A stretch of 24,834 nt of DNA from a virus (taxonomy: Duplodnaviria; Heunggongvirae; Uroviricota; Caudoviricetes), in IMG/VR virus record IMGVR_UViG_2563366939_000004, positions 1 through 24,834 of that record. One strand, written 5' to 3'. Position 1 is the stretch's first letter; each line of letters starts with the position of its first letter. The notes beneath the pieces were generated by a model. The model ran no database searches. It saw only the letters and a list, made by a program, of their open reading frames with translations, and was not told where the DNA came from. Positions 1-19,524 of this stretch are shown in pieces. The position numbers and the translations under genes are program-made.

Positions 1-786
1 AGTGGTATCAGCCATATAAAGCTGCCCCGTTCCCTCACCGCAGCACTTCGGGCAATCCGGATTGGGTATGGCGTTATCAACAAAGCCGAGGCCTCCATAT
101 TCCGGCTCGGGTTTACCATCTCTGGAGGCCTGTGCCGCAGCCTTATCGAATTCTGCAATATCACGCCACTGGTAGAGATGATTCTCGCCCCAGCAATAAC
201 GGCAGTTAACACGGCGAAATTGTGCCAACTGATTGGGGTCGGCCTGGACAATGGCCATCAACTGGCTCACCAGTAAATCCAGGTCTGCGGTATAGCGTTT
301 CTGGTACTGATTGCGGAAGTAGCTGATAGCACGATAAACCCTGGCATTTCTAAGCATACGGCTGGCGTTGCTGTTAGCTGTCGCACCTTGCCCCTCATAA
401 CCAGCCAGTCGGTATGCCTCTGTCGGCTTTTTCCCCTGAGCAACCAACATGGCGAATTTTGCCTGCTGGTCAGAAATACCGAATTCATCGGGGCAGAACG
501 AAATTTCTTCCGTGTCCCCCTCAATCAGGAGTGCATCGGATACAGCCTTTTTTTTCTGAGATTTTCCGTTCTGCCTTTGCGCAGTCTGCGCAGTTTTTTT
601 TCGCGCACTTTTTTGCGCAGTTTTGCGCATTTCTTTCTGCGCATTTTTCGGAGTTTTTTTGATGTAACGACGGGCTGTTGCGTAGTTCAGTCCCCTTGCT
701 TCACACCATGCCACCGGAGATATACCGGAGCGGGTGTATTCAGCAATATACTCCTGCTGCAACGCCCCCCAGTCCGGTCTGCTCAT
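1..786 (-). CDS. Phage DNA-packaging protein, terminase-small-subunit-like (N-terminal HTH, Lys/Ala-rich linker, Cys-rich C-region); 5' part only, runs off window start
   Basis: Hand translation from ATG at 786 gives uninterrupted frame to position 1 (MSRPDWGALQQEYIAEYTRSGISPVAWCEARGLNYATARRYIKK...NCRYCWGENH...PDCPKCCGEG); not in ORF track because no stop in window. Position directly after lysis genes is where lambdoid packaging genes sit. Function assignment is inference. Confidence 0.4.
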   Translation of the reverse strand, partial: MSRPDWGALQQEYIAEYTRSGISPVAWCEARGLNYATARRYIKKTPKNAQKEMRKTAQKSARKKTAQTAQRQNGKSQKKKAVSDALLIEGDTEEISFCPDEFGISDQQAKFAMLVAQGKKPTEAYRLAGYEGQGATANSNASRMLRNARVYRAISYFRNQYQKRYTADLDLLVSQLMAIVQADPNQLAQFRRVNCRYCWGENHLYQWRDIAEFDKAAAQASRDGKPEPEYGGLGFVDNAIPNPDCPKCCGEGTGQLYMADTT

Positions 787-789
787 CAG

Positions 790-1041
790 TTAGTCCTGAT
801 TTTTATCCACCCTGAGTAGTTCGCGCAGAGCAAAGGCATCCCCTTTTCTGGCAAGCTTAAACAATGCCGCTCGTAACTCGGCTTCACCTTTCGCTCTGCC
901 CTTACGGATGGCCGCATAAAAATCTGTCATTGCTTCCCGATTTTCTTTCAGTCGGTTCAGATCAACATCCAGAACGTCAGCGATTTGTTGTGCAGTCATC
1001 CGGCACGCTGCCAGAGACTCGACTTTCGAATACGGAATCAT
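790..1041 (-). CDS. Small HTH-like phage protein, resembles K-12 Rac YnaK from memory; start uncertain (alternative ATG at 999)
   Basis: 83-aa ORF (MIPYSKVESLAACRMTAQQIADVLDVDLNRLKENREAM...), stop 4 nt before terS-like ATG; overlaps upstream gene by 65 nt if long start is used. Confidence 0.5.
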   Translation of the reverse strand: MIPYSKVESLAACRMTAQQIADVLDVDLNRLKENREAMTDFYAAIRKGRAKGEAELRAALFKLARKGDAFALRELLRVDKNQD

Positions 1042-1909
1042 TTGTCACCCCCATTGATATGCAGGGTGTCTTCTTCCTGTATTTTTCGTGAAGGATTTTT
1101 ACTGCAGCGTTGTTCCAGGTGACCTGATGGTGAATGCGTTTATGGCTGGCACCCATCAGTGAGATTTTTACGCACGACGGCGCATACATGACGGAGTAAA
1201 AACTTTTAACGTAGGTTCCGGAATCCAGATACAGCTCGGTCATTCCGCCGCTGTTTTTCTGCGTCTGTTTCTGCCCTAACTGGACAGCACCGATCGTCAT
1301 AAACAATTCACCACAGCGACCGAGATTCGTGTACGTATTCACATCCTCGTTAATGCGCCCCATGAATGAGAACGGTCGATCAACCGAACAGATAAAGCTG
1401 TTCATTGCCTTGCGTTTCACCCACGAAGCATGGCCGCCATTGTCACCAAGAAAATCCCCGCCCTGCGACATAGCGATGGAAAGCGCGGGTATTGATTCGT
1501 AATACGCCAGCATTTCAGAAAGGATCGCATCCAGTTTCCTTATCGGGAAATAGGCCTGGTCATAGTTGCGATCCACCCGAAACTGGAACTCGTGATAATC
1601 ATCATCGAACTGAATGAAGTATTTACACCCGACCAGTTTTGCCAGGTCGAAACAGGCATTACGGGCGTAAAAAATTGAGCGGCGGTCACCAAAATTATCG
1701 GCTTCGTCAAAACGACTGGCAATATCGGCTTTGGAAAATACCAGCACCTGTTCACCAAATTCAGCCATGTACTGATGCCGTGTCTTATCTTCATCATCAA
1801 CAACGATAAAAATTTTCCCGGTATAGCCAGCACGACGCAACGTCCGGTAAGTCAGAACTTTGTCCGGTCGCCCGTGAGTCAGAATAAAGGCGCAAAAATC
1901 ATCACGCAT
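977..1909 (-). CDS. Uncharacterised 310-aa protein; motifs suggest a GT-A-fold nucleotide-sugar transferase-like enzyme (IFIVVDDEDK ... FIQFDDDYHEF); no PP-loop, no TM segments
   Basis: ORF with GGAGG RBS 5 nt upstream of ATG; start overlaps stop of upstream ParB-like gene by 8 nt (ATGCGTGA) indicating translational coupling. Fold assignment is motif-based inference only. Confidence 0.6.
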   Translation of the reverse strand: MRDDFCAFILTHGRPDKVLTYRTLRRAGYTGKIFIVVDDEDKTRHQYMAEFGEQVLVFSKADIASRFDEADNFGDRRSIFYARNACFDLAKLVGCKYFIQFDDDYHEFQFRVDRNYDQAYFPIRKLDAILSEMLAYYESIPALSIAMSQGGDFLGDNGGHASWVKRKAMNSFICSVDRPFSFMGRINEDVNTYTNLGRCGELFMTIGAVQLGQKQTQKNSGGMTELYLDSGTYVKSFYSVMYAPSCVKISLMGASHKRIHHQVTWNNAAVKILHEKYRKKTPCISMGVTNDSVFESRVSGSVPDDCTTNR

Positions 1910-2690
1910 ATTCCTCCTCCCCGCTATGCATGATCGCCACCATGCGCTGCGTCATTCGGACAAATCCATTTTCAATAGCCTGCTGATAATCAATGATCAC
2001 CAGCGCCGACTCCTCGAAAAGGCACTGAATTTCAGCGGGGGCATGAGCGTAATAGTCCGCAATTCTGCTGAAATTAAACACCGTGTGACGTTCTGCCGCA
2101 CACAGGAGGAATTTCTCAATATCAGGATCAAGGGACGCCGAACGTATCCGGCTGATCAGCTCCTGAGTTTTCGTATCGTCGTACAGTTCACTGATATCCG
2201 GTTTACCGCCCGACGGCTCATAAACAGGCGTATCAATTTTCGTCGTATACGGCTCCTCCTTATTTCCTGTACCGGGCAAAACATCCGTCAACAGTTCATC
2301 AATTTCTGTCGGGCCGAAGCCTGTCAGGGAGACATCAAAATCAGCATTGATTAGGTCCGACAGCTCCATCCGCAATAGATCTTCATCCCAGCCAGCATTC
2401 ATCGGTAGGCGATTATCTGCCAGGCGGTACGCCTTTTTCTGCTCATCCGTCAGGCCAGACAGAACAATGACCGGAACAGAATCCATTTTGAGCATTTCAG
2501 CCGCCATAACACGACCGTGACCCGCAATAATTTCGCCCTTTTCGTCAATCAGCACCGGATTAGTCCAGCCGAATTGCTTAATACTTTCTACCAGTTGTGC
2601 CACCTGCTCAGTACTGTGCGTCCTGGCGTTGTGCGCATACGGTGACAATTCTTGTAATGGGCGATAGACTATCTTTAATTTCTCGCTCAT
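1902..2690 (-). CDS. ParB/Srx-like nuclease-domain protein (262 aa)
   Basis: N-terminal ParB-N-like region (KIVYRPLQELSPYAHNARTHS...VLIDEKGEIIAGHGRVMAA); acidic C-terminal half; first gene of a two-gene cassette. Confidence 0.65.
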   Translation of the reverse strand: MSEKLKIVYRPLQELSPYAHNARTHSTEQVAQLVESIKQFGWTNPVLIDEKGEIIAGHGRVMAAEMLKMDSVPVIVLSGLTDEQKKAYRLADNRLPMNAGWDEDLLRMELSDLINADFDVSLTGFGPTEIDELLTDVLPGTGNKEEPYTTKIDTPVYEPSGGKPDISELYDDTKTQELISRIRSASLDPDIEKFLLCAAERHTVFNFSRIADYYAHAPAEIQCLFEESALVIIDYQQAIENGFVRMTQRMVAIMHSGEEEYA

Positions 2691-2827
2691 ACAGCCTTGC
2701 TTTATGAATAAAACGCACCCCAGCAGCCAGTGCTACTGGGGGCGGAGGTGTTGCTGGTAAAGTTAGGTATTGGATCAATGAGTGAGTCAATATAATATTA
2801 AACTCACAATTATAAATCAGCCATATA

Positions 2828-4285
2828 TTAGGAGCGCCAAAAAAAACCTGAAAACAATATAATAACAGGATAAATTTCAAGGCGACCAAGAATCATAGCT
2901 ATGCACATTAAATATTTTGCAATGTCATTAAGCACTCCGAATGACGATGCAGTAGCCCCAAAACCTAATCCCATATTATTAATACATGCAGCCACTGTTG
3001 CAAATGATGTAAGAAAATCATATCCCATACCATTTAACACCAGTATAAAAAACACCGTGAAGAGAGTATAAAGAAAAAAGAAACTCCATACAGACCTCAT
3101 TACACGATCTGTAACTATCTTCCCTCCTACATTTACACTCAACAACGCTCTGGGATGAGAAAGCTGATTTATCTCGTGTTTGCTTTGTTTGAAAAGTATA
3201 AGAAATCGAAGTGACTTAATTCCACCACAAGTTGAACCTATACATCCCCCAAAGAAACTTGACAACAGCAAAAACACTATCGTGTGCGTGGGCCAGTTTG
3301 CATAATCCTGCGTAGCTAAACCATTATCAGTGAGCATGGAGCTGGCAAGAAAAAACGAATGAATAAAACTTCCATGCAAGTCATACATACCTATATGCCA
3401 GACCTGGAAAGAGGTAACAATGATCACCCCTAAGGCTATTAACAGAAAGAAACGAAGTTCAATATCTCTGATTAAAGGTTTTATCGTTTTCCTGCTAATA
3501 ACAATATACCAAAGAGTGAAGTTGAAAGCCGATAGCAGGGAAAAAGAACCAGCCACCAGCTCAACCAAATAGTTATTAAAATATCCGATACTCTCGCTAT
3601 GAGTTGAGAAACCACCAAGCGAAACTGTGGAAATCCCGTGACAAATAGCATCAAACAAAGGCATTCCTGCAAGTCTATAACAGACAATACAAGCAATACC
3701 TAATAAAGAATAAGTTATCCACAGTGTCCGTGACGTATCGGCCAGGCGGGGAGTGAGTTTGTCATCCTTAAATGGCCCCGGCATTTCTGACTGATAAAGC
3801 TTTGCACCACCAATACCCAATAATGGCAATACAGCAACCGCCAGAACAATAACTCCTAAACCACCTATAAAATTTAACTGTGACCGATAGTACAAATATG
3901 CCCGAGGTAATGAACTAACATCATCAATTACAGTTGCTCCTGTTGTTGTTATTCCAGAAACCCCTTCAAACAGAGCATCAATGAACGTTAAATTAAGTTC
4001 TGAGTCAATCCATAAAGGGAATGCACTAATAACAGAAAACAAAATCCAAAACATTACAATTATAATAAACCCATCACGGGTACGTAATTGAATGCCAGAT
4101 TTCTTAGTTGTATACCACGCTCCGCCACCAATGCAAAAAAATATAACGAAAGTTATAAAGAAAACGAACAGGCTTTTTTCTTTATAAAACAATGCTACAA
4201 CCATTGGTGGCAACATTGAAAGACTATAGAGCCAAACCAGGAACCCACACATATGAGTAACAACTCTTACATGAGATGTATTCAT
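2828..4285 (-). CDS. trkG: TrkG, Trk-system K+ uptake membrane protein (485 aa from ATG at 4285; ORF-track start is an upstream TTG)
   Basis: Polytopic membrane protein starting MNTSHVRVVTHMCGFLVWLYSL..., matches my recollection of the K-12 Rac-encoded TrkG; strongly AT-rich relative to flanking DNA. Confidence 0.85.
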   Translation of the reverse strand: MNTSHVRVVTHMCGFLVWLYSLSMLPPMVVALFYKEKSLFVFFITFVIFFCIGGGAWYTTKKSGIQLRTRDGFIIIVMFWILFSVISAFPLWIDSELNLTFIDALFEGVSGITTTGATVIDDVSSLPRAYLYYRSQLNFIGGLGVIVLAVAVLPLLGIGGAKLYQSEMPGPFKDDKLTPRLADTSRTLWITYSLLGIACIVCYRLAGMPLFDAICHGISTVSLGGFSTHSESIGYFNNYLVELVAGSFSLLSAFNFTLWYIVISRKTIKPLIRDIELRFFLLIALGVIIVTSFQVWHIGMYDLHGSFIHSFFLASSMLTDNGLATQDYANWPTHTIVFLLLSSFFGGCIGSTCGGIKSLRFLILFKQSKHEINQLSHPRALLSVNVGGKIVTDRVMRSVWSFFFLYTLFTVFFILVLNGMGYDFLTSFATVAACINNMGLGFGATASSFGVLNDIAKYLMCIAMILGRLEIYPVIILFSGFFWRS

Positions 4286-4422
4286 ATCTAAATATTCTTT
4301 CAATTATAACCACCTTGCTGCAATATTATGATTATACTGTATAAAATTTAACCCCTCTTAGATCTTACTTCACTGTTCCTTATGAAACAATCATCAAAAT
4401 GAATCATATTGTAGTTAAGATT

Positions 4423-6878: not shown

Positions 6879-7421
6879 TCAAGCCGTTTTTTGAGCGAGT
6901 GATTCTCGCATGGGAATGTATAGCGCATACTCAGCAACGGCCAACCAATTAGCAATTCGCTTTTCGCATGTGCTAAAACACCACTCTGGGTGTGCATCAT
7001 TTAGCAATTCAGCCATTTTGCGTTTGGTCATCCCCCGCCCCTCATACCGTTGCCGAAGGACGCTAATCAATCCTGGATGCTCTGCCAGCACCTCACTTAT
7101 GACCCGATCAATACATAACGCCTCTGCATCAGTACAATGCGCCAGCCAGCTCTTTTGCTTACCGTTAATCATATCCCGCAAAAAAGCCTCAAGTTCAGAC
7201 TTGTTCAGACCTGCTTTTTTCATCCTCCGGAGCGCCTCGTTAATTGCCGTTTTTGTCAGCTTTTTAGAGGCCAACAACTGATTGAACATATTTCCTGACC
7301 TGCCACCGCCAATATACGACCAGCGCCCCCACATACGCAGTTTGCCCTGAATCCAGACACTTTCCAGCGTTGCGAGACGAAGGTGTTCTCCGCTTTTTCC
7401 TGTATTCGTTGGGTAAATCAC
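6879..7421 (-). CDS. Putative late-gene antiterminator Q-like protein (about 180 aa from GTG at 7421)
   Basis: Position between nin-like genes and lysis cassette; GTG start preceded by AGGAGG and overlapping upstream stop (GTGA); two Cys pairs (CTDAEALC, WCFSTC) compatible with a Zn site. Family assignment is inference from synteny. Confidence 0.5.
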   Translation of the reverse strand: MIYPTNTGKSGEHLRLATLESVWIQGKLRMWGRWSYIGGGRSGNMFNQLLASKKLTKTAINEALRRMKKAGLNKSELEAFLRDMINGKQKSWLAHCTDAEALCIDRVISEVLAEHPGLISVLRQRYEGRGMTKRKMAELLNDAHPEWCFSTCEKRIANWLAVAEYALYIPMRESLAQKTA

Positions 7422-7708
7422 AAATATCCCTCCTTTCTCCAGATTTCTTGTGTGCGAAAAACACCTTCTGCATGCATCAGGCGTAATTCTTCTTTGGTGT
7501 AATCGCTGGTTTTTACCCGCCCGTCGATTAGATCGTGGCATGAGCTACAGGCAATCGCCGCCTGCATATCGTGTGGTTTTGTCGCTGTTCCGCACGTTCC
7601 CGCCAGTCGGTAATGCGCCAGCACAGACGTTTCCGGATCGTGATTGCAGTAGCCAGGAATTCTGACGGTGCACATCTGCCCCCGCGCCGCTTTACGTAAA
7701 TCCACCAT
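7418..7708 (-). CDS. YbcO-like small Cys-rich phage protein (DUF1364-type, putative nuclease)
   Basis: 96 aa, MVDLRKAARGQMCTVRIPGYCNHDPETSVLAH...CGTATKPHD...ACSSCHD resembles K-12 DLP12 YbcO from memory. Confidence 0.65.
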   Translation of the reverse strand: MVDLRKAARGQMCTVRIPGYCNHDPETSVLAHYRLAGTCGTATKPHDMQAAIACSSCHDLIDGRVKTSDYTKEELRLMHAEGVFRTQEIWRKEGYL

Positions 7709-8307
7709 TACGCAAACTCCAGCAGCTGCGCGGCCACATTTTCGACTTGTTCCGGAGAGGAAAATTTACGGAACAGAATCCAGTTCCACAGCACATTCAG
7801 AACAGATTTATAAACCTGCTGAAACTCGGTTTCGTCCATATTCGCAAAAGCGATGGATTTCGCCCGACGCCCATGGCTACCGTCCGGATAAAAATGTTCG
7901 GTGTAAAATCCAGCCTGAATGGTTACCCACTCGCGAAAAGCCTCAAACGACTTTAGCAATGCCGTATCCCGGGTTCTGCGTGTCGCAACTGTATTCAGAT
8001 ATTGCTCTGCGGCATCACTCAGGGCTGGCGTGTGTTCCCGACCAACTGATTCGCACAGGTAATCAACGAAACCAGACAGCAGTTCTCGTTCGCGAGGCGT
8101 GATCGCCCCACCGACCGGAGTCCAGTAATCGAATCCCAGTTGCAGGAGTTTGAAAAAACGCTTGTGGAATACGTAGTTACGCACACGCTTAAAGTCTGCG
8201 TGTATCCACTCACCTATTTTGATTTGATGCAGAAAATCGCAACTCTCCGGCGTCGCCGGGAGAAGTAAACCAGAAGAGGTTTGTTTGACCAGTTGTATAT
8301 GCGCCAT
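7708..8307 (-). CDS. Conserved lambdoid nin-region protein of unknown function (199 aa)
   Basis: ORF with 1-nt stop/start overlap (TAATG) with ybcO-like gene. Confidence 0.55.
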   Translation of the reverse strand: MAHIQLVKQTSSGLLLPATPESCDFLHQIKIGEWIHADFKRVRNYVFHKRFFKLLQLGFDYWTPVGGAITPRERELLSGFVDYLCESVGREHTPALSDAAEQYLNTVATRRTRDTALLKSFEAFREWVTIQAGFYTEHFYPDGSHGRRAKSIAFANMDETEFQQVYKSVLNVLWNWILFRKFSSPEQVENVAAQLLEFA

Positions 8308-8580
8308 TTCTCAATCTCTCGATGGCGCAGTGCAACAGATGCCAGTTGTTCAGGCTGACGTATAAAGTATAAATAAACTGGTTCCAGTGTAAAGCCCCCA
8401 CATTGATGGAATAAAAACCAAACAACAGATTGCTGGGATAAAAACAACGCTTATTATTAAAAGCGGTTAAACAAATTAAATTTTAATGTTATGCAAATCT
8501 GCCAGATCACCATAATATCTCATTTGAAAACCGCTGAAATAACAACCCTATCAGGATTAATCATATTAAGGTGAGTAAAT

Positions 8581-8667
8581 ATGGAAAACAACAAATCTGC
8601 ACATTACGTTCCTTTTTTATCTGTAATACTTTTTGTTTTATGCTGTGCGTGGGCATTATTTTTATAA
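8581..8667 (+). CDS. Putative 28-aa hydrophobic small protein (MENNKSAHYVPFLSVILFVLCCAWALFL)
   Basis: Strong SD (AAGGTGAG) 5 nt upstream of ATG; single predicted TM helix; below ORF-track size cutoff; convergent with hok. Confidence 0.35.
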   Translation: MENNKSAHYVPFLSVILFVLCCAWALFL

Positions 8668-8773
8668 AAATATTCACAGATAAAATATACCCGCCAAAGC
8701 AGGTTAAGTGCGGGTGCGTTGAGGATGCCTGACACATCAGAGGTGGCGAGGGATTTATCCCCCGCCAGGTCTC

Positions 8774-8929
8774 TTACTCCTCAGGTTCGTAAGCTGTGAA
8801 GACAGCGACCTCCGTCTGGCCGGTTCGGATTCGTACCTCACAGAGGTCTTTCCTCGTTACCAGTGCCGTCACTATGACGGTTAAACAGATGACGATCAGG
8901 GCGATTAACATCGCCTTTTGCTGCTTCAT
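8774..8929 (-). CDS. Hok-family type I toxin (51 aa)
   Basis: Hand translation gives MKQQKAMLIALIVICLTVIVTALVTRKDLCEVRIRTGQTEVAVFTAYEPEE, a Hok/Gef family sequence; missed by ORF track because under 60 aa. Confidence 0.85.
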   Translation of the reverse strand: MKQQKAMLIALIVICLTVIVTALVTRKDLCEVRIRTGQTEVAVFTAYEPEE

Positions 8930-9451
8930 AGCCTGCTTCTCCTTGACCTTTCGGTCCGTAAGAGGCTAATCTCTATGTGTCGCATAGATATGGCCTCAGA
9001 TTAATGTTAAACGTCTTGCAGGACGCGTAATGTTAACTGGGGCTTTTCTCTATCTACCTTTGGTGTTCATGCCCGAGGCAGATAGCCTCAAGCACCCACA
9101 GCAATTCTAACTATCCAATACATCACTGCCAACACTTTAAACTCTTACCCTTTAAAACAAGAACAAAATTCAACCAATCAGCATTGGGCGTATACTCATA
9201 TCCTAGAGAAAACAACTCTTTCTGTACTATTTATATCCATATGATTTATAAGCATTTGCCACTTGCCATAGCCGCACAATGACAGTTTGCCATTTGATGT
9301 CAATAGATAAAAATGATCGTTTTCAATGAGTTACATACTTGCAAGGCGTTGCACATCAGGCCCGATTACGTCAGTATCAAAAGATTACAGATGGTGCATT
9401 ACTGCCACCTCGCCTTAATGTTCCAGAACTCTCCAACTTGAGGAATTTTCA

Positions 9452-15613: not shown

Positions 15614-16033
15614 TCCATTATTTGGATTAATTCAATATTCTCGCTGTAGGGGTATAGCAGAAACCACCAAAGCCCGGAGGTGGTGAAATAAAACCGGGCA
15701 CAACACGAAGGCGCATTTCCGATATCCATAAAGAGTCGGTCTTGTCTGTTAAATTTAAATGGTGGGAGTGCGCCTCCGGTTGTGAATAACAACACTGCTG
15801 TGTGTAGTCTTGGCGGCATCAGTTTTTTCTTGAAGTTCGACTGATGTCCGCCCTTTTTAAAGTGAATTTTGTGATGCGGTGAATGCGGCTAAGCGCACGC
15901 GGCACAGTTAAAAGTCATGTTAGTCCTTATTGGTTTGGGTGGGAAAACCGACTGTAATTGTTAACTGGTTGCAGTCACCTGGAGGCACCAGGCACCGCAT
16001 CAACAAAGTTCATTTGTAAAAATGGAGATAATT

Positions 16034-16255
16034 ATGATTGCACATCACTTCGGAACTGATGAAATACCACGTCAGTGTGTGACTCCTGGTGATTATGTTC
16101 TTCATGAAGGCCGGACATATATCGCCTCGGCAAACAATATTAAAAAGCGAAAACTTTATATTCGTAACCTGACTACAAAAACATGCATTTCTGACTGCAT
16201 GATTAAAGTCTTCCTCGGTCGTGATGGTTTACCTGTAAAGGCGGAGTCATGGTGA
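16034..16255 (+). CDS. kilR: KilR, FtsZ-targeting killing protein of Rac
   Basis: 73 aa [32 protein letters not shown]... matches recalled KilR. Confidence 0.85.
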
Positions 16256-16425
16256 TGACTAAGAAAATAAAATGTGCTTACCACCTTTGCAATAAAGGAA
16301 TTGAAGAAAGCAAAAGCATTAAAAGACCACTTCATTTCATGCGTGGAGTTATCCCAACGACGGAAATGAAAAAATATTGTAGTGAAAATTGTGCCGAAAA
16401 AGACCAGATGGCACACGAACTTTAA
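16255..16425 (+). CDS. ydaE: YdaE-like small Cys-rich protein (56 aa)
   Basis: [18 protein letters not shown]...YCSENCAEKDQMAHEL; start overlaps kilR stop; below ORF-track cutoff. Confidence 0.65.
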   Translation: MTKKIKCAYHLCNKGIEESKSIKRPLHFMRGVIPTTEMKKYCSENCAEKDQMAHEL

Positions 16426-16498
16426 TTAACTGACTATGCGAAACTGAATTTATGCCAGCAATGGCAGGGATTCGCTCAACCTTAATTAAGGAGAAAAA

Positions 16499-16774
16499 AT
16501 GATTACCAATTATGAAGTCACTGTTGTAACTACCGATGACATTGTTCACGAGGTTAATCTGGAAGGAAAGCGTATTGGCTACGTCATTAAAACAGAAAAT
16601 AAAGAAACCCCATTCACTGTGGTTGATATTGACGGCCCATCAGGCAACGTAAAAACACTTGATGAAGGTGTCACAAAAATGAGTCTGGTTCACATCGGAA
16701 AGAATCTGCCCGCAGAAAAAAAAGCCGGATTTCTGGCAACTCTGATTGCAATGAAATTAAAAGGTGAAATCTGA
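16499..16774 (+). CDS. racC: RacC
   Basis: 91 aa, AAGGAG RBS, synteny upstream of recE. Confidence 0.8.
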   Translation: MITNYEVTVVTTDDIVHEVNLEGKRIGYVIKTENKETPFTVVDIDGPSGNVKTLDEGVTKMSLVHIGKNLPAEKKAGFLATLIAMKLKGEI

Positions 16775-16872
16775 AAAAAGAAAGCCTGCACAACGTGCAG
16801 GCCTGAGTGAAGAACCTGGGACATTTATTCATCACTCGCAGTAATTTTAATCTGAGTTGAGGTTAAAAAACA

Positions 16873-19524
16873 ATGAGCACAAAACCACTCTTCCTTTTAC
16901 GGAAAGCGAAAAAATCATCCGGTGAACCTGACGTCGTCCTGTGGGCAAGCGACGATTTTGAATCAACCTGTGCCACTCTGGACTACCTGATCGTTAAGTC
17001 AGGTAAAAAACTGAGCAACTATTTTAAAGCTGTTGCCACAAATTTTCCTGTCGTTAATGACCTTCCCCCTGAAGGTGAGATCGATTTTACCTGGAGTGAA
17101 CGCTATCAACTCAGCAAAGACTCCATGACCTGGGAACTAAAACCGGGAGCAGCGCCAGACGACGTTCACCATCAGGAGGATGCACCGGAAACCGAAGAAC
17201 CGACGGGAGGCCAGGAAGAAAACGCGCAGGCAGACGCCCACGAGGATTGCCAGGATTGCGAAGTCTCTGTAGCCACTTTGCGGTTCACACAGCGTCTTCT
17301 GCACATTTTTACGTATGCAGCCGGGGATCGAAAATACCTGCATCATGCCACCCGTGAACAACGCAAACACATTACTGCTCTTGAGATGGATCAGGAAAAC
17401 AGCTATGTCCAGAATCTGCTGTTGGCCATACGCAGCATGGCAGAACCGACAACTCTGGATAATGCCGCCCTGCTCCGCCTGACTGATGCAATTAAGGCAG
17501 TGTTCTCTATCACGAAAAAACATCAGCCCTATGAATTTAAGAATTTCATTTCAGCCTGGCTGGATACCGAACACATTGATCGCGGTCTTCTGACAAAAGA
17601 ATGGCGAAAAGGGAATCGTGTTTCACGCATCACTCGCACGGCTTCCGGTGCTAATGCTGGCTGCGGGAACCTCACCGATCGCGGCGAAGGTTTCGTCCAC
17701 GATCTGACGTCACTGGCGCGCGATGTAGCCACTGGCGTACTGGCCCGTTCAATGGACGTGGACATCTATAACCTTCATCCGGCACACGCTAAACGCATTG
17801 AGGAAATTATCGCTGAAAATAAACCACCCTTTTCTGTTTTCCGCGACAAATTCATCACCATGCCTGGCGGGCTGGATTATTCCCGCGCCATCGTGGTTGC
17901 GTCCGTGAAAGAAGCACCAATTGGGATCGAGGTCATCCCCGCACACGTCACTGAATATCTGAACAAAGTACTGACTGAAACTGATCATGCCAACCCTGAT
18001 CCGGAAATCGTGGATATTGCCTGCGGTCGCTCCTCGGCCCCGATGCCGCAGCGAGTAACAGAAGAAGGAAAACAGGATGATGAAGAAAAACCGCAACCAT
18101 CTGGAACAACGGCAGATGAACAGGGAGAGGCTGAAACAATGGAACCGGACGCAACTGAACATCATCAGGACACGCAGCCACTGGATGCTCAGTCACAGGT
18201 AAATTCTGTTGAAGCGAAATATCAGGAACTGCGGGCAGAACTCCATGAAGCCCGGAAAAACATTCCATCAAAAAATCCTGTCGATGCCGATAAATTGCTT
18301 GCTGCATCACGTGGTGAATTTGTTGACGGAATTAGCGACCCGAACGATCCGAAATGGGTTAAGGGGATCCAGACTCGCGATTCTGTGTACCAGAACCAGC
18401 CAGAAACGGAAAAAATCAGCCCGGATATGAAACAACCTGAGCCAGTAGTGCAACAGGAACCGGAAATAGCCTGCAATGCCTGCGGTCAGACTGGCGGGGA
18501 TAACTGCCCTGACTGTGGTGCGGTGATGGGCGACGCAACATACCAGGAAACATTCGATGAAGAGAATCAGGTTGAAGCTAAGGAAAATGATCCGGAGAAA
18601 ATGGAAGGCGCTGAACATCCGCACAATGAGAATGCTGGCAGCGATCCGCATCGCGATTGCAGTGATGAAACTGGCGAAGTCGCAGATCCCGTAATCGTAG
18701 AAGACATAGAGCCAGGTATTTATTACGGAATTTCGAATGAGAATTACCACGCGGGTCCCGGTGTCAGTAAGTCTCAGCTCGATGACATTGCTGATACTCC
18801 GGCACTGTATTTGTGGCGTAAAAATGCCCCCGTGGACACCACAAAGACAAAAACGCTCGATTTAGGAACCGCTTTCCACTGCCGGGTACTTGAACCGGAA
18901 GAATTCAGTAACCGCTTTATCGTAGCACCTGAATTTAACCGCCGTACAAACGCCGGAAAAGAAGAGGAGAAAGCGTTTCTGATGGAATGCGCAAACACAG
19001 GAAAAACGGTTATCACTGCGGAAGAAGGCCGGAAAATTGAACTCATGTATCAAAGCGTTATGGCTTTGCCGCTGGGGCAATGGCTTGTTGAAAGCGCCGG
19101 ACACGCTGAATCATCAATTTACTGGGAAGATCCTGAAACAGGAATTTTGTGTCGGTGCCGTCCGGACAAAATTATCCCTGAATTTCACTGGATCATGGAC
19201 GTGAAAACTACGGCGGATATTCAACGATTCAAAACGGCTTATTACGACTACCGCTATCACGTTCAGGATGCATTCTACAGTGACGGTTATGAAGCACAGT
19301 TTGGAGTGCAGCCAACTTTCGTTTTTCTGGTTGCCAGCACAACTATTGAATGCGGACGTTATCCGGTTGAAATTTTCATGATGGGCGAAGAAGCAAAACT
19401 GGCAGGTCAGCTGGAATATCACCGCAATCTGCGAACCCTGGCTGACTGCCTCAATACCGATGAATGGCCAGCTATTAAGACGTTATCACTGCCCCGCTGG
19501 GCTAAGGAATATGCAAATGACTAA
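16873..19524 (+). CDS. recE: RecE, exonuclease VIII (5'-3' dsDNA exonuclease)
   Basis: 883 aa; C-terminal region ([16 protein letters not shown]...[17 protein letters not shown]...) matches recalled RecE nuclease domain; middle region appears diverged from the K-12 sequence as I recall it. Confidence 0.9.

Follow-up and report, generated by a model that had tools for sequence, protein, structure and literature searches.

We analyzed a pair of adjoining genes in a tailed virus (Caudoviricetes), positions 1 to 24,834 of the IMG/VR record IMGVR_UViG_2563366939_000004; this whole stretch of 24,834 nucleotides (nt) is referred to as the window. The upstream gene (1902..2690, minus strand) encodes a 262-amino-acid (aa) protein of the ParB/Srx fold and is the full-length form of the Escherichia coli K-12 gene 'ynaK', while the downstream gene (977..1909, minus strand) encodes a 310-aa GT-A glycosyltransferase of the TAGT (TET-associated glycosyltransferase) family. 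We found that the two genes are one unit and that the pairing was obligate in every relative with readable upstream sequence. We propose, at roughly even odds (a probability of about 0.5), that they encode a late-expressed two-protein DNA-modification module consisting of the glycosyltransferase and a dedicated ParB-like activator or adaptor.

The ParB-like partner and the glycosyltransferase form an obligate pair

We scanned one genome per species and obtained 79 loci, which belong to Proteobacteria, Bacteroidota, Firmicutes, Veillonella, Verrucomicrobiota, Spirochaetota, Saccharibacteria and archaeal metagenome-assembled genomes. In all 75 loci with readable upstream sequence, a same-strand upstream gene matched the profile of the partner. 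The partner abutted or overlapped the TAGT gene in about 70 of these 75 and lay 0.8-1.6 kb upstream in L127, L132 and L146. The best-conserved part of the partner was its C-terminal domain (C-domain), which was matched by its hidden Markov model at E 1e-22 to 1e-64 in 75/75 loci; where the profile did not detect the N-terminal domain (N-domain), the alignment still showed ParB-type boxes such as GNKRLRA. When viral contigs were scanned with the partner as seed, a TAGT gene was present in each of the 35 loci having the C-domain, mostly adjacent to the partner but ~0.9 kb downstream in L190, L192 and L194, and with a second TAGT gene between the two in L199. By contrast, this TAGT clade occurred in none of the 48 viral loci that had the N-domain only. 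The C-domain was found in 28 of 50,697 phage genomes and the TAGT clade accompanied it in 28/28, whereas the T4-like (Aeromonas) TAGTs, which are 23-25% identical to the 310-aa protein, came without a C-domain. A first-pass annotation of the window had predicted a single functional unit whose genes should co-occur in other genomes, and these counts bear the prediction out.

Cultured carriers included Lactobacillus phages c5 and phi jlb1, Nocardia phage NTR1, Vibrio phages of ~195 kb and the haloarchaeal virus HHTV-2, for which papers make no statement on gp21/gp22. The pairing is both widespread and ancient. In the Vibrio phages the partner was a 139-aa protein made of the C-domain only, and the pair lay among replication genes (primase, exonuclease, helicase). 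Because this partner has the C-domain alone, the minimal unit is the C-domain plus the TAGT.

The coordinates of the two genes and their stop/start overlap, as given in the first-pass annotation, were confirmed from the sequence. The overlap of 8 nt, ATGCGTGA (1902..1909, minus strand), joins the partner stop codon TGA (1904..1902) to the glycosyltransferase start codon ATG (1909..1907). A Shine-Dalgarno-like element for the glycosyltransferase, GGAGGAGGA (1912..1920, minus strand), was read from the sequence inside the last codons of the partner gene. Stop/start overlaps of 4-29 nt were also present in the relatives L082, L083, L084 and L248-L252, in halovirus HHTV-2 and in Lactobacillus phage c5. 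Since these distant relatives were gene-called independently, the overlap is not a chance feature.

The 310-aa protein is a TAGT-family glycosyltransferase

Membership of the 310-aa protein in Pfam PF20691 (TAGT) is clear from its sequence, with a match at 118.8 bits (cut-off 27.5, E 3.9e-34) over profile positions 4-205 of 205. It also matched PHROG 842 at E 5.6e-103, and a search of a viral structure library with the glycosyltransferase model returned TAGT-domain proteins. NCBI names the protein 'GREB1-related protein' or hypothetical, and the T2/T6 alpha-glucosyltransferase name found in PHROG/RefSeq is a transferred annotation only. The family comprised 1328 clusters (50% identity) at E <= 1e-3 and 492 at E <= 1e-30, with a usual homologue length of ~288 aa.

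Both the GT-A fold and the R…DDD…EDY/F catalytic signature were present in the 310-aa protein. The strand motif VVDDED (residues 36-41; 1787..1804, minus strand) appears to provide the nucleotide-binding acidic residues of the GT-A Rossmann half; D38 and D41 were invariant in an alignment of 20 homologues and D41 also in one of 47. The predicted metal/nucleotide-sugar motif DDD (DxD) occupies residues 102-104 (1598..1606, minus strand). All 47 homologues kept D41, D104, N187, D189, H260 and H261 unchanged, R14, D102, D103 and Y193 were at least 90% conserved among them, and the 20 closer homologues also kept D38 and E188. These residues make up the R…DDD…EDY/F pattern known from DNA-acting phage GT-A enzymes and the base-J glucosyltransferase. 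Thus the VVDDxD and DDD motifs from which the first-pass annotation had deduced a GT-A-like transferase were invariant or nearly so, and the absence of a PP-loop that it had noted also held, since we found no match to the PAPS-reductase family PF01507 in the 310-aa protein even at E<=1.

The AlphaFold model of the 310-aa protein was confident for residues 1-150 only. The models of both proteins were built from 20-sequence alignments, and no conclusion was drawn from their C-terminal halves. Residues ~282-310 (980..1066, minus strand) form a non-conserved tail that was absent or unaligned in the homologues; in the E. coli protein this tail, of about 25 residues, overlaps the next open reading frame (ORF). 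The glycosyltransferase was mildly basic, with a median isoelectric point (pI) of 8.7.

Several relatives within the TAGT clade were fusion proteins, carrying an N-terminal P-loop (Walker A) kinase-like domain (P0272, P0310, P0313), a class I methyltransferase added at the C-terminal side of the TAGT (P0248, P0251, P0285), a sulfotransferase (P0286) or a second TAGT domain (P0268). A separate ParB-like partner lay upstream in both fusion types whose loci were read (P0272, P0248), and, in the library of 50% clusters, none of the long TAGT proteins was a ParB-TAGT fusion of the 'Rosetta stone' kind. In a few loci, the pair adjoined sugar-nucleotide genes encoding UDP-galactopyranose mutase, an epimerase/dehydratase or nucleotidyltransferases. 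The fusions and these adjacent genes fit a sugar-transferring, sometimes sugar-elaborating role.

The partner combines a ParB/Srx N-domain with a dedicated C-domain

At the N terminus, a nucleotide-binding domain of the ParB/Srx type covers residues 1-135 of the partner (2286..2690, minus strand) and contains the boxes NARTHS, GWTNPVLIDE, IIAGHGR and YRLADN. The partner matched PF02195 (ParB_N) at 29.3 bits (cut-off 26.3), phrog_620 at E 3e-90 and, by phmmer, Spo0J (1vz0) at E 1.8e-5. Foldseek with the partner model returned Noc, PadC, ParB-CDP/CTPgS and KorB at E 8e-6 to 1e-3, while sulfiredoxin was matched more weakly (E 2e-3 to 3e-2). Aligned to Spo0J, the phosphate-binding residues were kept, R23 being nearly invariant and R60 and N93 invariant. 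The first-pass annotation had called this protein a ParB-like nuclease, a description that is not supported. The word is a family label only, the domain being the nucleoside triphosphate (NTP)-binding ParB/Srx fold, and its second box reads GHGR in place of GERR. In the model, the predicted local distance difference test score (pLDDT) was 71-92 over most of the N-domain, with helices spanning residues 120-134; it fell below 50 over residues 136-170, and residues 172-254 were helical.

Within the predicted disordered acidic linker (residues 136-170) lies the motif Y-T-x-K-I-x-x-P-x-Y-E-P-S-G (residues 148-161; 2208..2249, minus strand). In 71 diverse sequences this generalised to Y-[ST]-x-K-I-x-x-P-x-Y-x-P-[ST]-G, with Y148 and Y157 invariant. 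The helical C-domain follows (residues 166-255; 1926..2195, minus strand); it tracks the glycosyltransferase and has the invariant residues R201, Y214, E226 and D234. A profile of the 71 sequences gave nothing significant against Pfam or Protein Data Bank sequences; only weak matches recurred, those to PF23887 ('phage L5 gene 47-like'), for which the best E was 0.0025. The partner is acidic in all three segments (pI 4.25-4.6, net charge about -21 to -26), and this negative charge fits an activator working through protein contacts.

Relatives of the N-domain accompany DNA-modifying enzymes

The N-domain of the partner was 50-65% identical to the ParB_N domain of 48 viral-contig relatives that have no C-domain (L200-L247). 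Twenty-six of these were ParB_N fused to a DNA N6/N4-methyltransferase and the others were stand-alone proteins. The stand-alone proteins were immediately followed by Mom-family PF25680 genes (6), PAPS-reductase genes (2) or DNA methyltransferase genes (2), usually with terminases next in line, and a distant TAGT was also among their downstream neighbours. A general cassette type, 'ParB_N plus DNA-modifying enzyme', is suggested by these arrangements. That several enzymes which modify DNA bases share the N-module as their front end, at the start of the packaging operon, is our main argument for a DNA substrate. The pair itself shared this position and in nearly all cases stood closely upstream of terminase genes; the terminases within two genes downstream of it belonged to at least six Pfam families unrelated to one another. 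The order in phage c5 was cos, partner, TAGT, two small ORFs and the large terminase subunit gene.

Genomic position, selection and distribution in E. coli

Gene order was taken from the PGAP annotation of an E. coli chromosome that is 100% identical to the window. On the minus strand, the antiterminator Q gene is followed by two tRNAs, holin, lysozyme, Rz, trkG (2828..4303) and the pair, and then by a small helix-turn-helix (HTH)-like ORF, the small and large terminase subunit genes and the portal gene, so that the cassette stands between trkG and the packaging genes as first described. The prophage is otherwise of Rac type, with int, xis, recET, kilR, repressor and replication genes. An intrinsic-terminator-like hairpin (2718..2741, minus strand) with a 10-bp stem, 7 G-C pairs and a T-rich tail ends the trkG moron, 28 nt upstream of the start of the partner gene. 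From the gene order and this strong terminator-like hairpin, the pair probably belongs to the late, Q-dependent transcription unit, and trkG, bracketed by the hairpin, may be an independent insert in the late operon. The position behind Q-dependent late and lysis genes argues for expression at induction and not in the lysogen.

Among 5426 complete E. coli genomes, 1619 matched part of window 700-2900 and 867 held at least 80% of it. Genomes of the K-12 type matched only window ~2437-2900, comprising the end of trkG and an 87-codon ParB-like stump annotated ynaK, with the remainder of the pair deleted; the remark in the first-pass annotation that the K-12 Rac remnant lacks the pair was therefore essentially right. 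All of 80 E. coli prophage contigs had an intact 310-aa ORF, and 74 of them had both ORFs intact. Compared with the copies in Superficieibacter, Serratia and Pantoea, the proportion of synonymous differences (pS) was saturated at 0.74-0.87, while the nonsynonymous proportion (pN) was 0.13-0.16 for the 310-aa gene and 0.24-0.25 for the partner, and therefore both genes are under strong purifying selection. PGAP calls the 262-aa ORF of NZ_CP042899.1, a record with 100% identity to the window, only an 86-codon 'ynaK' pseudogene fragment (L001 13734-13991). As the ORF is intact, the label is apparently an artefact, produced by taking the shortened K-12 protein as the reference. The K-12 ynaK is equivalent to window ~2430-2690; a 2026 screen reported that overexpression of the 87-aa YnaK, the ParB N-domain stump, raised the minimal inhibitory concentration of six antibiotics 3-6-fold (PMC12924614).

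Proposed mechanism and alternatives

The most economical reading would be that the module works like the ParB-dependent dioxygenase system and the ParB-methyltransferase fusions that are compared below. The glycosyltransferase would be the effector, moving a sugar from a nucleotide-sugar, and the C-domain and linker motif of the partner would dock or activate it. The ParB/Srx N-domain, an NTP-binding module that phages seem to reuse for several DNA base-modifying enzymes, would couple the glycosyltransferase to double-stranded phage DNA. The pair would be transcribed with the late operon just ahead of the terminase genes, so that replicated phage DNA would be marked shortly before packaging, and the likeliest benefit would be the shielding of phage DNA from host nucleases in the next cell. 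This proposal draws directly on family membership, the intact active site, obligate pairing, genomic position, purifying selection and the company of the N-domain; from these we infer the DNA substrate, activation by the partner, timing and benefit. The first-pass annotation had offered DNA modification, anti-restriction or defence as roles. DNA modification is the best supported of these, by association with the methyltransferase, Mom and PAPS-reductase company of the N-domain relatives and with the published ParB-like/dioxygenase pair (PMC13229309). Anti-restriction is a role that we infer, and defence is not supported, given the late position of the genes and the lack of a PADLOC model for the glycosyltransferase.

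Several observations weigh against this proposal, and the acceptor is its weak point, a puzzle that the first-pass annotation had not raised. Every characterized DNA-acting enzyme of the TAGT type needs a hydroxyl supplied by another enzyme, on 5-hydroxymethylcytosine (5hmC), 5-hydroxymethyluracil (5hmU) or glucosyl-hmC, and nothing here provides it. The prophage annotation contained no TET/JBP dioxygenase and no hydroxymethylase of the thymidylate-synthase type, nor did these occur among the top 25 families per scan in ~70 loci, counting neighbours up to three genes away. Alpha-GT, beta-GT and hmC genes were likewise absent from the prophage annotation. The eukaryotic relative GREB1 glycosylates a protein (PMC7968844). 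Direct DNA clamping by the partner is doubtful because it is strongly acidic and has no recognizable DNA-binding domain, and its GHGR box has lost the Glu used in hydrolysis. The C-terminal halves of both structure models were of low confidence. In the searchable literature we found no paper on the TAGT-specific C-domain and no experiment on the pair. Finally, the TAGT gene was intact in Lactobacillus phage c5 and was split in two or a remnant in the Lactobacillus delbrueckii phages phiLdb (KF188410/NC_022762), Ld17 (NC_025420), LL-Ku (NC_022989) and Ld25A (NC_025415), and the pair is therefore dispensable there. A bolder form of the DNA reading, which we hold only tentatively and consider rather doubtful, is that the ParB-like partner loads or switches on this TAGT clade, which then adds sugar to DNA directly, without prior hydroxymethylation. 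On a base that is canonical or Dam/Dcm-methylated, the sugar might then be placed on an exocyclic amine or at some other position, and the modification might be sparse or sequence-specific, which could explain why it has gone unnoticed.

The lack of a DNA acceptor pathway in the prophage annotation and among the listed neighbour families also speaks for a protein target. The glycosyltransferase might O-glycosylate the Tyr/Thr/Ser motif in the linker of its own partner, in the manner of glycogenin, or an adjacent packaging or virion protein. The TAGT-like domain of GREB1 indeed O-GlcNAcylates a protein, the linker motif lies in a disordered segment with both tyrosines invariant, the pair constantly adjoins terminase and head genes, and one metagenomic phage (L083) has extra GT2 genes after its capsid gene. 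We nevertheless consider protein O-glycosylation improbable. The nearest N-domain relatives all accompany DNA base-modifying enzymes, the active-site signature is that of the DNA-acting subgroup, the pair of the Vibrio jumbo phages lies among primase, exonuclease and helicase genes and not structural ones, and the adjacent terminase and head proteins are of unrelated families with no common target evident. It is less probable again that the glycosyltransferase is an orphan finishing enzyme acting on 5hmU or 5hmC made by another element or a superinfecting phage, either in inter-phage competition or in some hosts only. This would agree with the use of hydroxymethylated bases or glucosyl-hmC by all characterized DNA TAGTs, with GTs (31%) and ParBs (27%) being the commonest neighbours of phage 5mYOX genes, and with the antiviral role that has been proposed for prophage GTs. 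However, the stable state across phyla was the pairing without a 5mYOX or thymidylate synthase (ThyS) neighbour among the families listed, expression in a lysogen is unlikely for genes in a late operon behind the trkG terminator, and the distantly related T-even-type TAGTs lack a C-domain partner.

We regard a role as packaging helper as similarly unlikely. Here the ParB-like protein would nick or recognize the packaging site, being comparable to terminase-adjacent HNH proteins, and the glycosyltransferase would be accessory. The pair does stand immediately upstream of terminase in most loci and beside cos in phage c5, and methylase-fused ParB domains have been reported to nick DNA (PMC5512222). 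However, it is the C-domain and not the ParB domain that forms the conserved TAGT-specific part, and the terminases concerned (cos-type, headful and others, of at least six families) share no packaging-site mechanism. The Vibrio phage pair is away from terminase and without a ParB domain, K-12 has lost the pair by deletion, and some lytic phages of Lactobacillus carry it in broken form. That the cassette is an inert passenger, a decaying or non-functional moron in E. coli, is very unlikely indeed. Its truncation in K-12 and many strains (1619 genomes match, 867 hold at least 80%) and the pseudogene label on one copy are set against the intactness of that ORF, of both genes in 74/80 prophages and of all catalytic residues, and against strong purifying selection.

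Other features of the region and of related loci

The small HTH-like ORF (790..1041, minus strand; PGAP start 999) separates the cassette from the gene of the terminase small subunit (window <1..786). It matched positions 145-218 of the small-subunit family phrog_309 at E 8e-23. As a 69-83-aa ORF within window 790-1066 (minus strand), it resembles an internal piece of that family and is distinct from the 364-aa small subunit gene downstream. A run of repeated TGCGCA/TTTTT units was noted in window 540-660 on the plus strand, where two terminator-like hairpins were also called. On the minus strand, this run falls within the terminase small subunit gene, where its product would be a low-complexity stretch rich in Lys/Arg.

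In five or six loci, a gene for a ~718-aa radical S-adenosylmethionine (radical-SAM) protein with an NrdR-like zinc ribbon lay directly downstream of the TAGT gene (L125, L126, L133, L137 on the opposite strand, and L147; ~6880-9040). A 320-aa radical-SAM gene lay upstream of the pair in L248 (80-1042). These neighbours could bear on the question of the acceptor. The two GT2-family glycosyltransferase genes after the capsid gene of the metagenomic phage L083, which also carries the pair, are at 15837-16894 and may be genes for virion glycosylation that are distinct from the pair.

Comparison with known systems

Recent papers have raised the question of what a solitary TAGT does when no TET/5mYOX or hydroxymethylase gene adjoins it. 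'Solitary' TAGTs were present in 288 of 753 GT-encoding phages, their function being called undefined (PMC13216743), and about 65% of phage GT contigs had no 5mYOX or ThyS neighbour in another survey, which mentions nearby ParB-like and terminase genes without deeper analysis (bioRxiv 10.1101/2023.12.21.572611). The window offers a concrete, genetically tractable E. coli example of such an enzyme. Both protein families are known already and ParB-assisted DNA modification was published in 2026. What we did not find in the searchable literature is the obligate, dioxygenase-free pair of a ParB-C-domain protein and a TAGT, widely distributed in E. coli and open to direct testing; the identification of an uncharacterized C-terminal domain and linker motif as the enzyme-tracking part of the partner; and a ParB N-module that cassettes for methyltransferase, Mom and PAPS-reductase have in common where the packaging operon begins. 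DNA modification by the pair, if true, would mean either a new acceptor chemistry or a new targeting of a DNA-modifying enzyme, with bearing on restriction evasion, sequencing artefacts and the prophage biology of common E. coli lineages. Were direct DNA glycosylation true, a new DNA-modification chemistry would be present in roughly one of every six complete E. coli genomes, and also in tailed viruses from haloarchaea and many bacterial phyla. If a protein is glycosylated instead, bacteria and viruses would have in the pair a counterpart of GREB1.

The closest parallel to our proposal is the ParB176/5mYOX176 system, in which the thymine (5-methylpyrimidine) dioxygenase 5mYOX176 requires a phage ParB-like protein for activity on double-stranded DNA in a cognate-specific manner (PMC13229309, PNAS 2026). 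This ParB-like protein is laid out as a nucleotide-binding domain, then two paired helices, a disordered linker of ~50 aa and a C-terminal domain, and has no DNA-binding domain (PMC13229309). Compared by this published description, the model of the 262-aa partner shares the layout, including the absence of a DNA-binding domain, and in both systems a ParB-like gene stands beside the gene of a post-replicative DNA-modifying enzyme. 5mYOX clusters, too, are often near terminase genes and often have GT genes; the commonest neighbours of phage 5mYOX genes were GTs (31%), ParBs (27%) and terminases (19%) (PMC13229309). Unlike in that system, the enzyme beside the 262-aa partner is a glycosyltransferase, no dioxygenase was found, and the C-domain of the partner follows the TAGT one-to-one. 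The gene downstream of the partner was a TAGT, and not a 5mYOX gene, in all loci.

On the side of the glycosyltransferase, the T2/T6 beta-glucosyl-HMC alpha-glucosyltransferase and the TET/5mYOX-associated GT-A enzymes have PF20691, the GT-A fold and the R…DDD…EDY/F signature in common with the 310-aa protein, and PF20691 includes the T2/T6 enzyme that puts a second glucose on glucosyl-hmC (PMC13216743, NAR 2026). These enzymes use 5hmC, 5hmU or glucosyl-hmC from a co-encoded pathway, whereas no such pathway was found in the prophage annotation. The T-even-type TAGTs are also distant in sequence, with 23-25% identity, and have no partner with the C-domain. GREB1 (PMC7968844), whose TAGT-like domain modifies estrogen receptor alpha (ER-alpha), has a related catalytic domain but is a 1949-aa multidomain eukaryotic protein with a protein substrate and no ParB-like partner.

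On the side of the partner, the fusions of ParB_N to DNA N6/N4-methyltransferases (PHROG 498, Bacillus cereus Bce_0392 type) have N-domains 50-65% identical to ours, and terminase genes often follow them. They carry the effector in one polypeptide, whereas the pair has a separate glycosyltransferase and a dedicated C-terminal domain. A survey of the ParB-CTPase fold found methyltransferase fusions enriched in prophages and left glycosyltransferases unmentioned. A partition ParB of the ParABS type was rejected: TIGR00180 scored 38.1 bits against a cut-off of 58.45, no HTH domain was found in the partner, its net charge is about -21, and there was no ParA among the neighbours. Known anti-phage defence systems in PADLOC-DB were rejected as well, the glycosyltransferase having no match and the partner matching through its N-domain alone, to a type II methyltransferase model of which only the N-terminal part was covered. 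In IbrA/IbrB, with which the first-pass annotation had suggested a comparison, a ParB/Srx-fold gene is likewise coupled to an enzyme gene, and pairs with PAPS_reduct do occur among the N-domain relatives. The likeness ends there, since the 310-aa protein has no PAPS-reductase domain, and an IbrA/IbrB-type pair was ruled out. For want of the feature that defines each, we placed the pair outside the TET/5mYOX-linked and T-even TAGT subgroups, the partition ParBs and the IbrAB-type pairs. By sequence and fold, it belongs to the TAGT family and the ParB/Srx superfamily.

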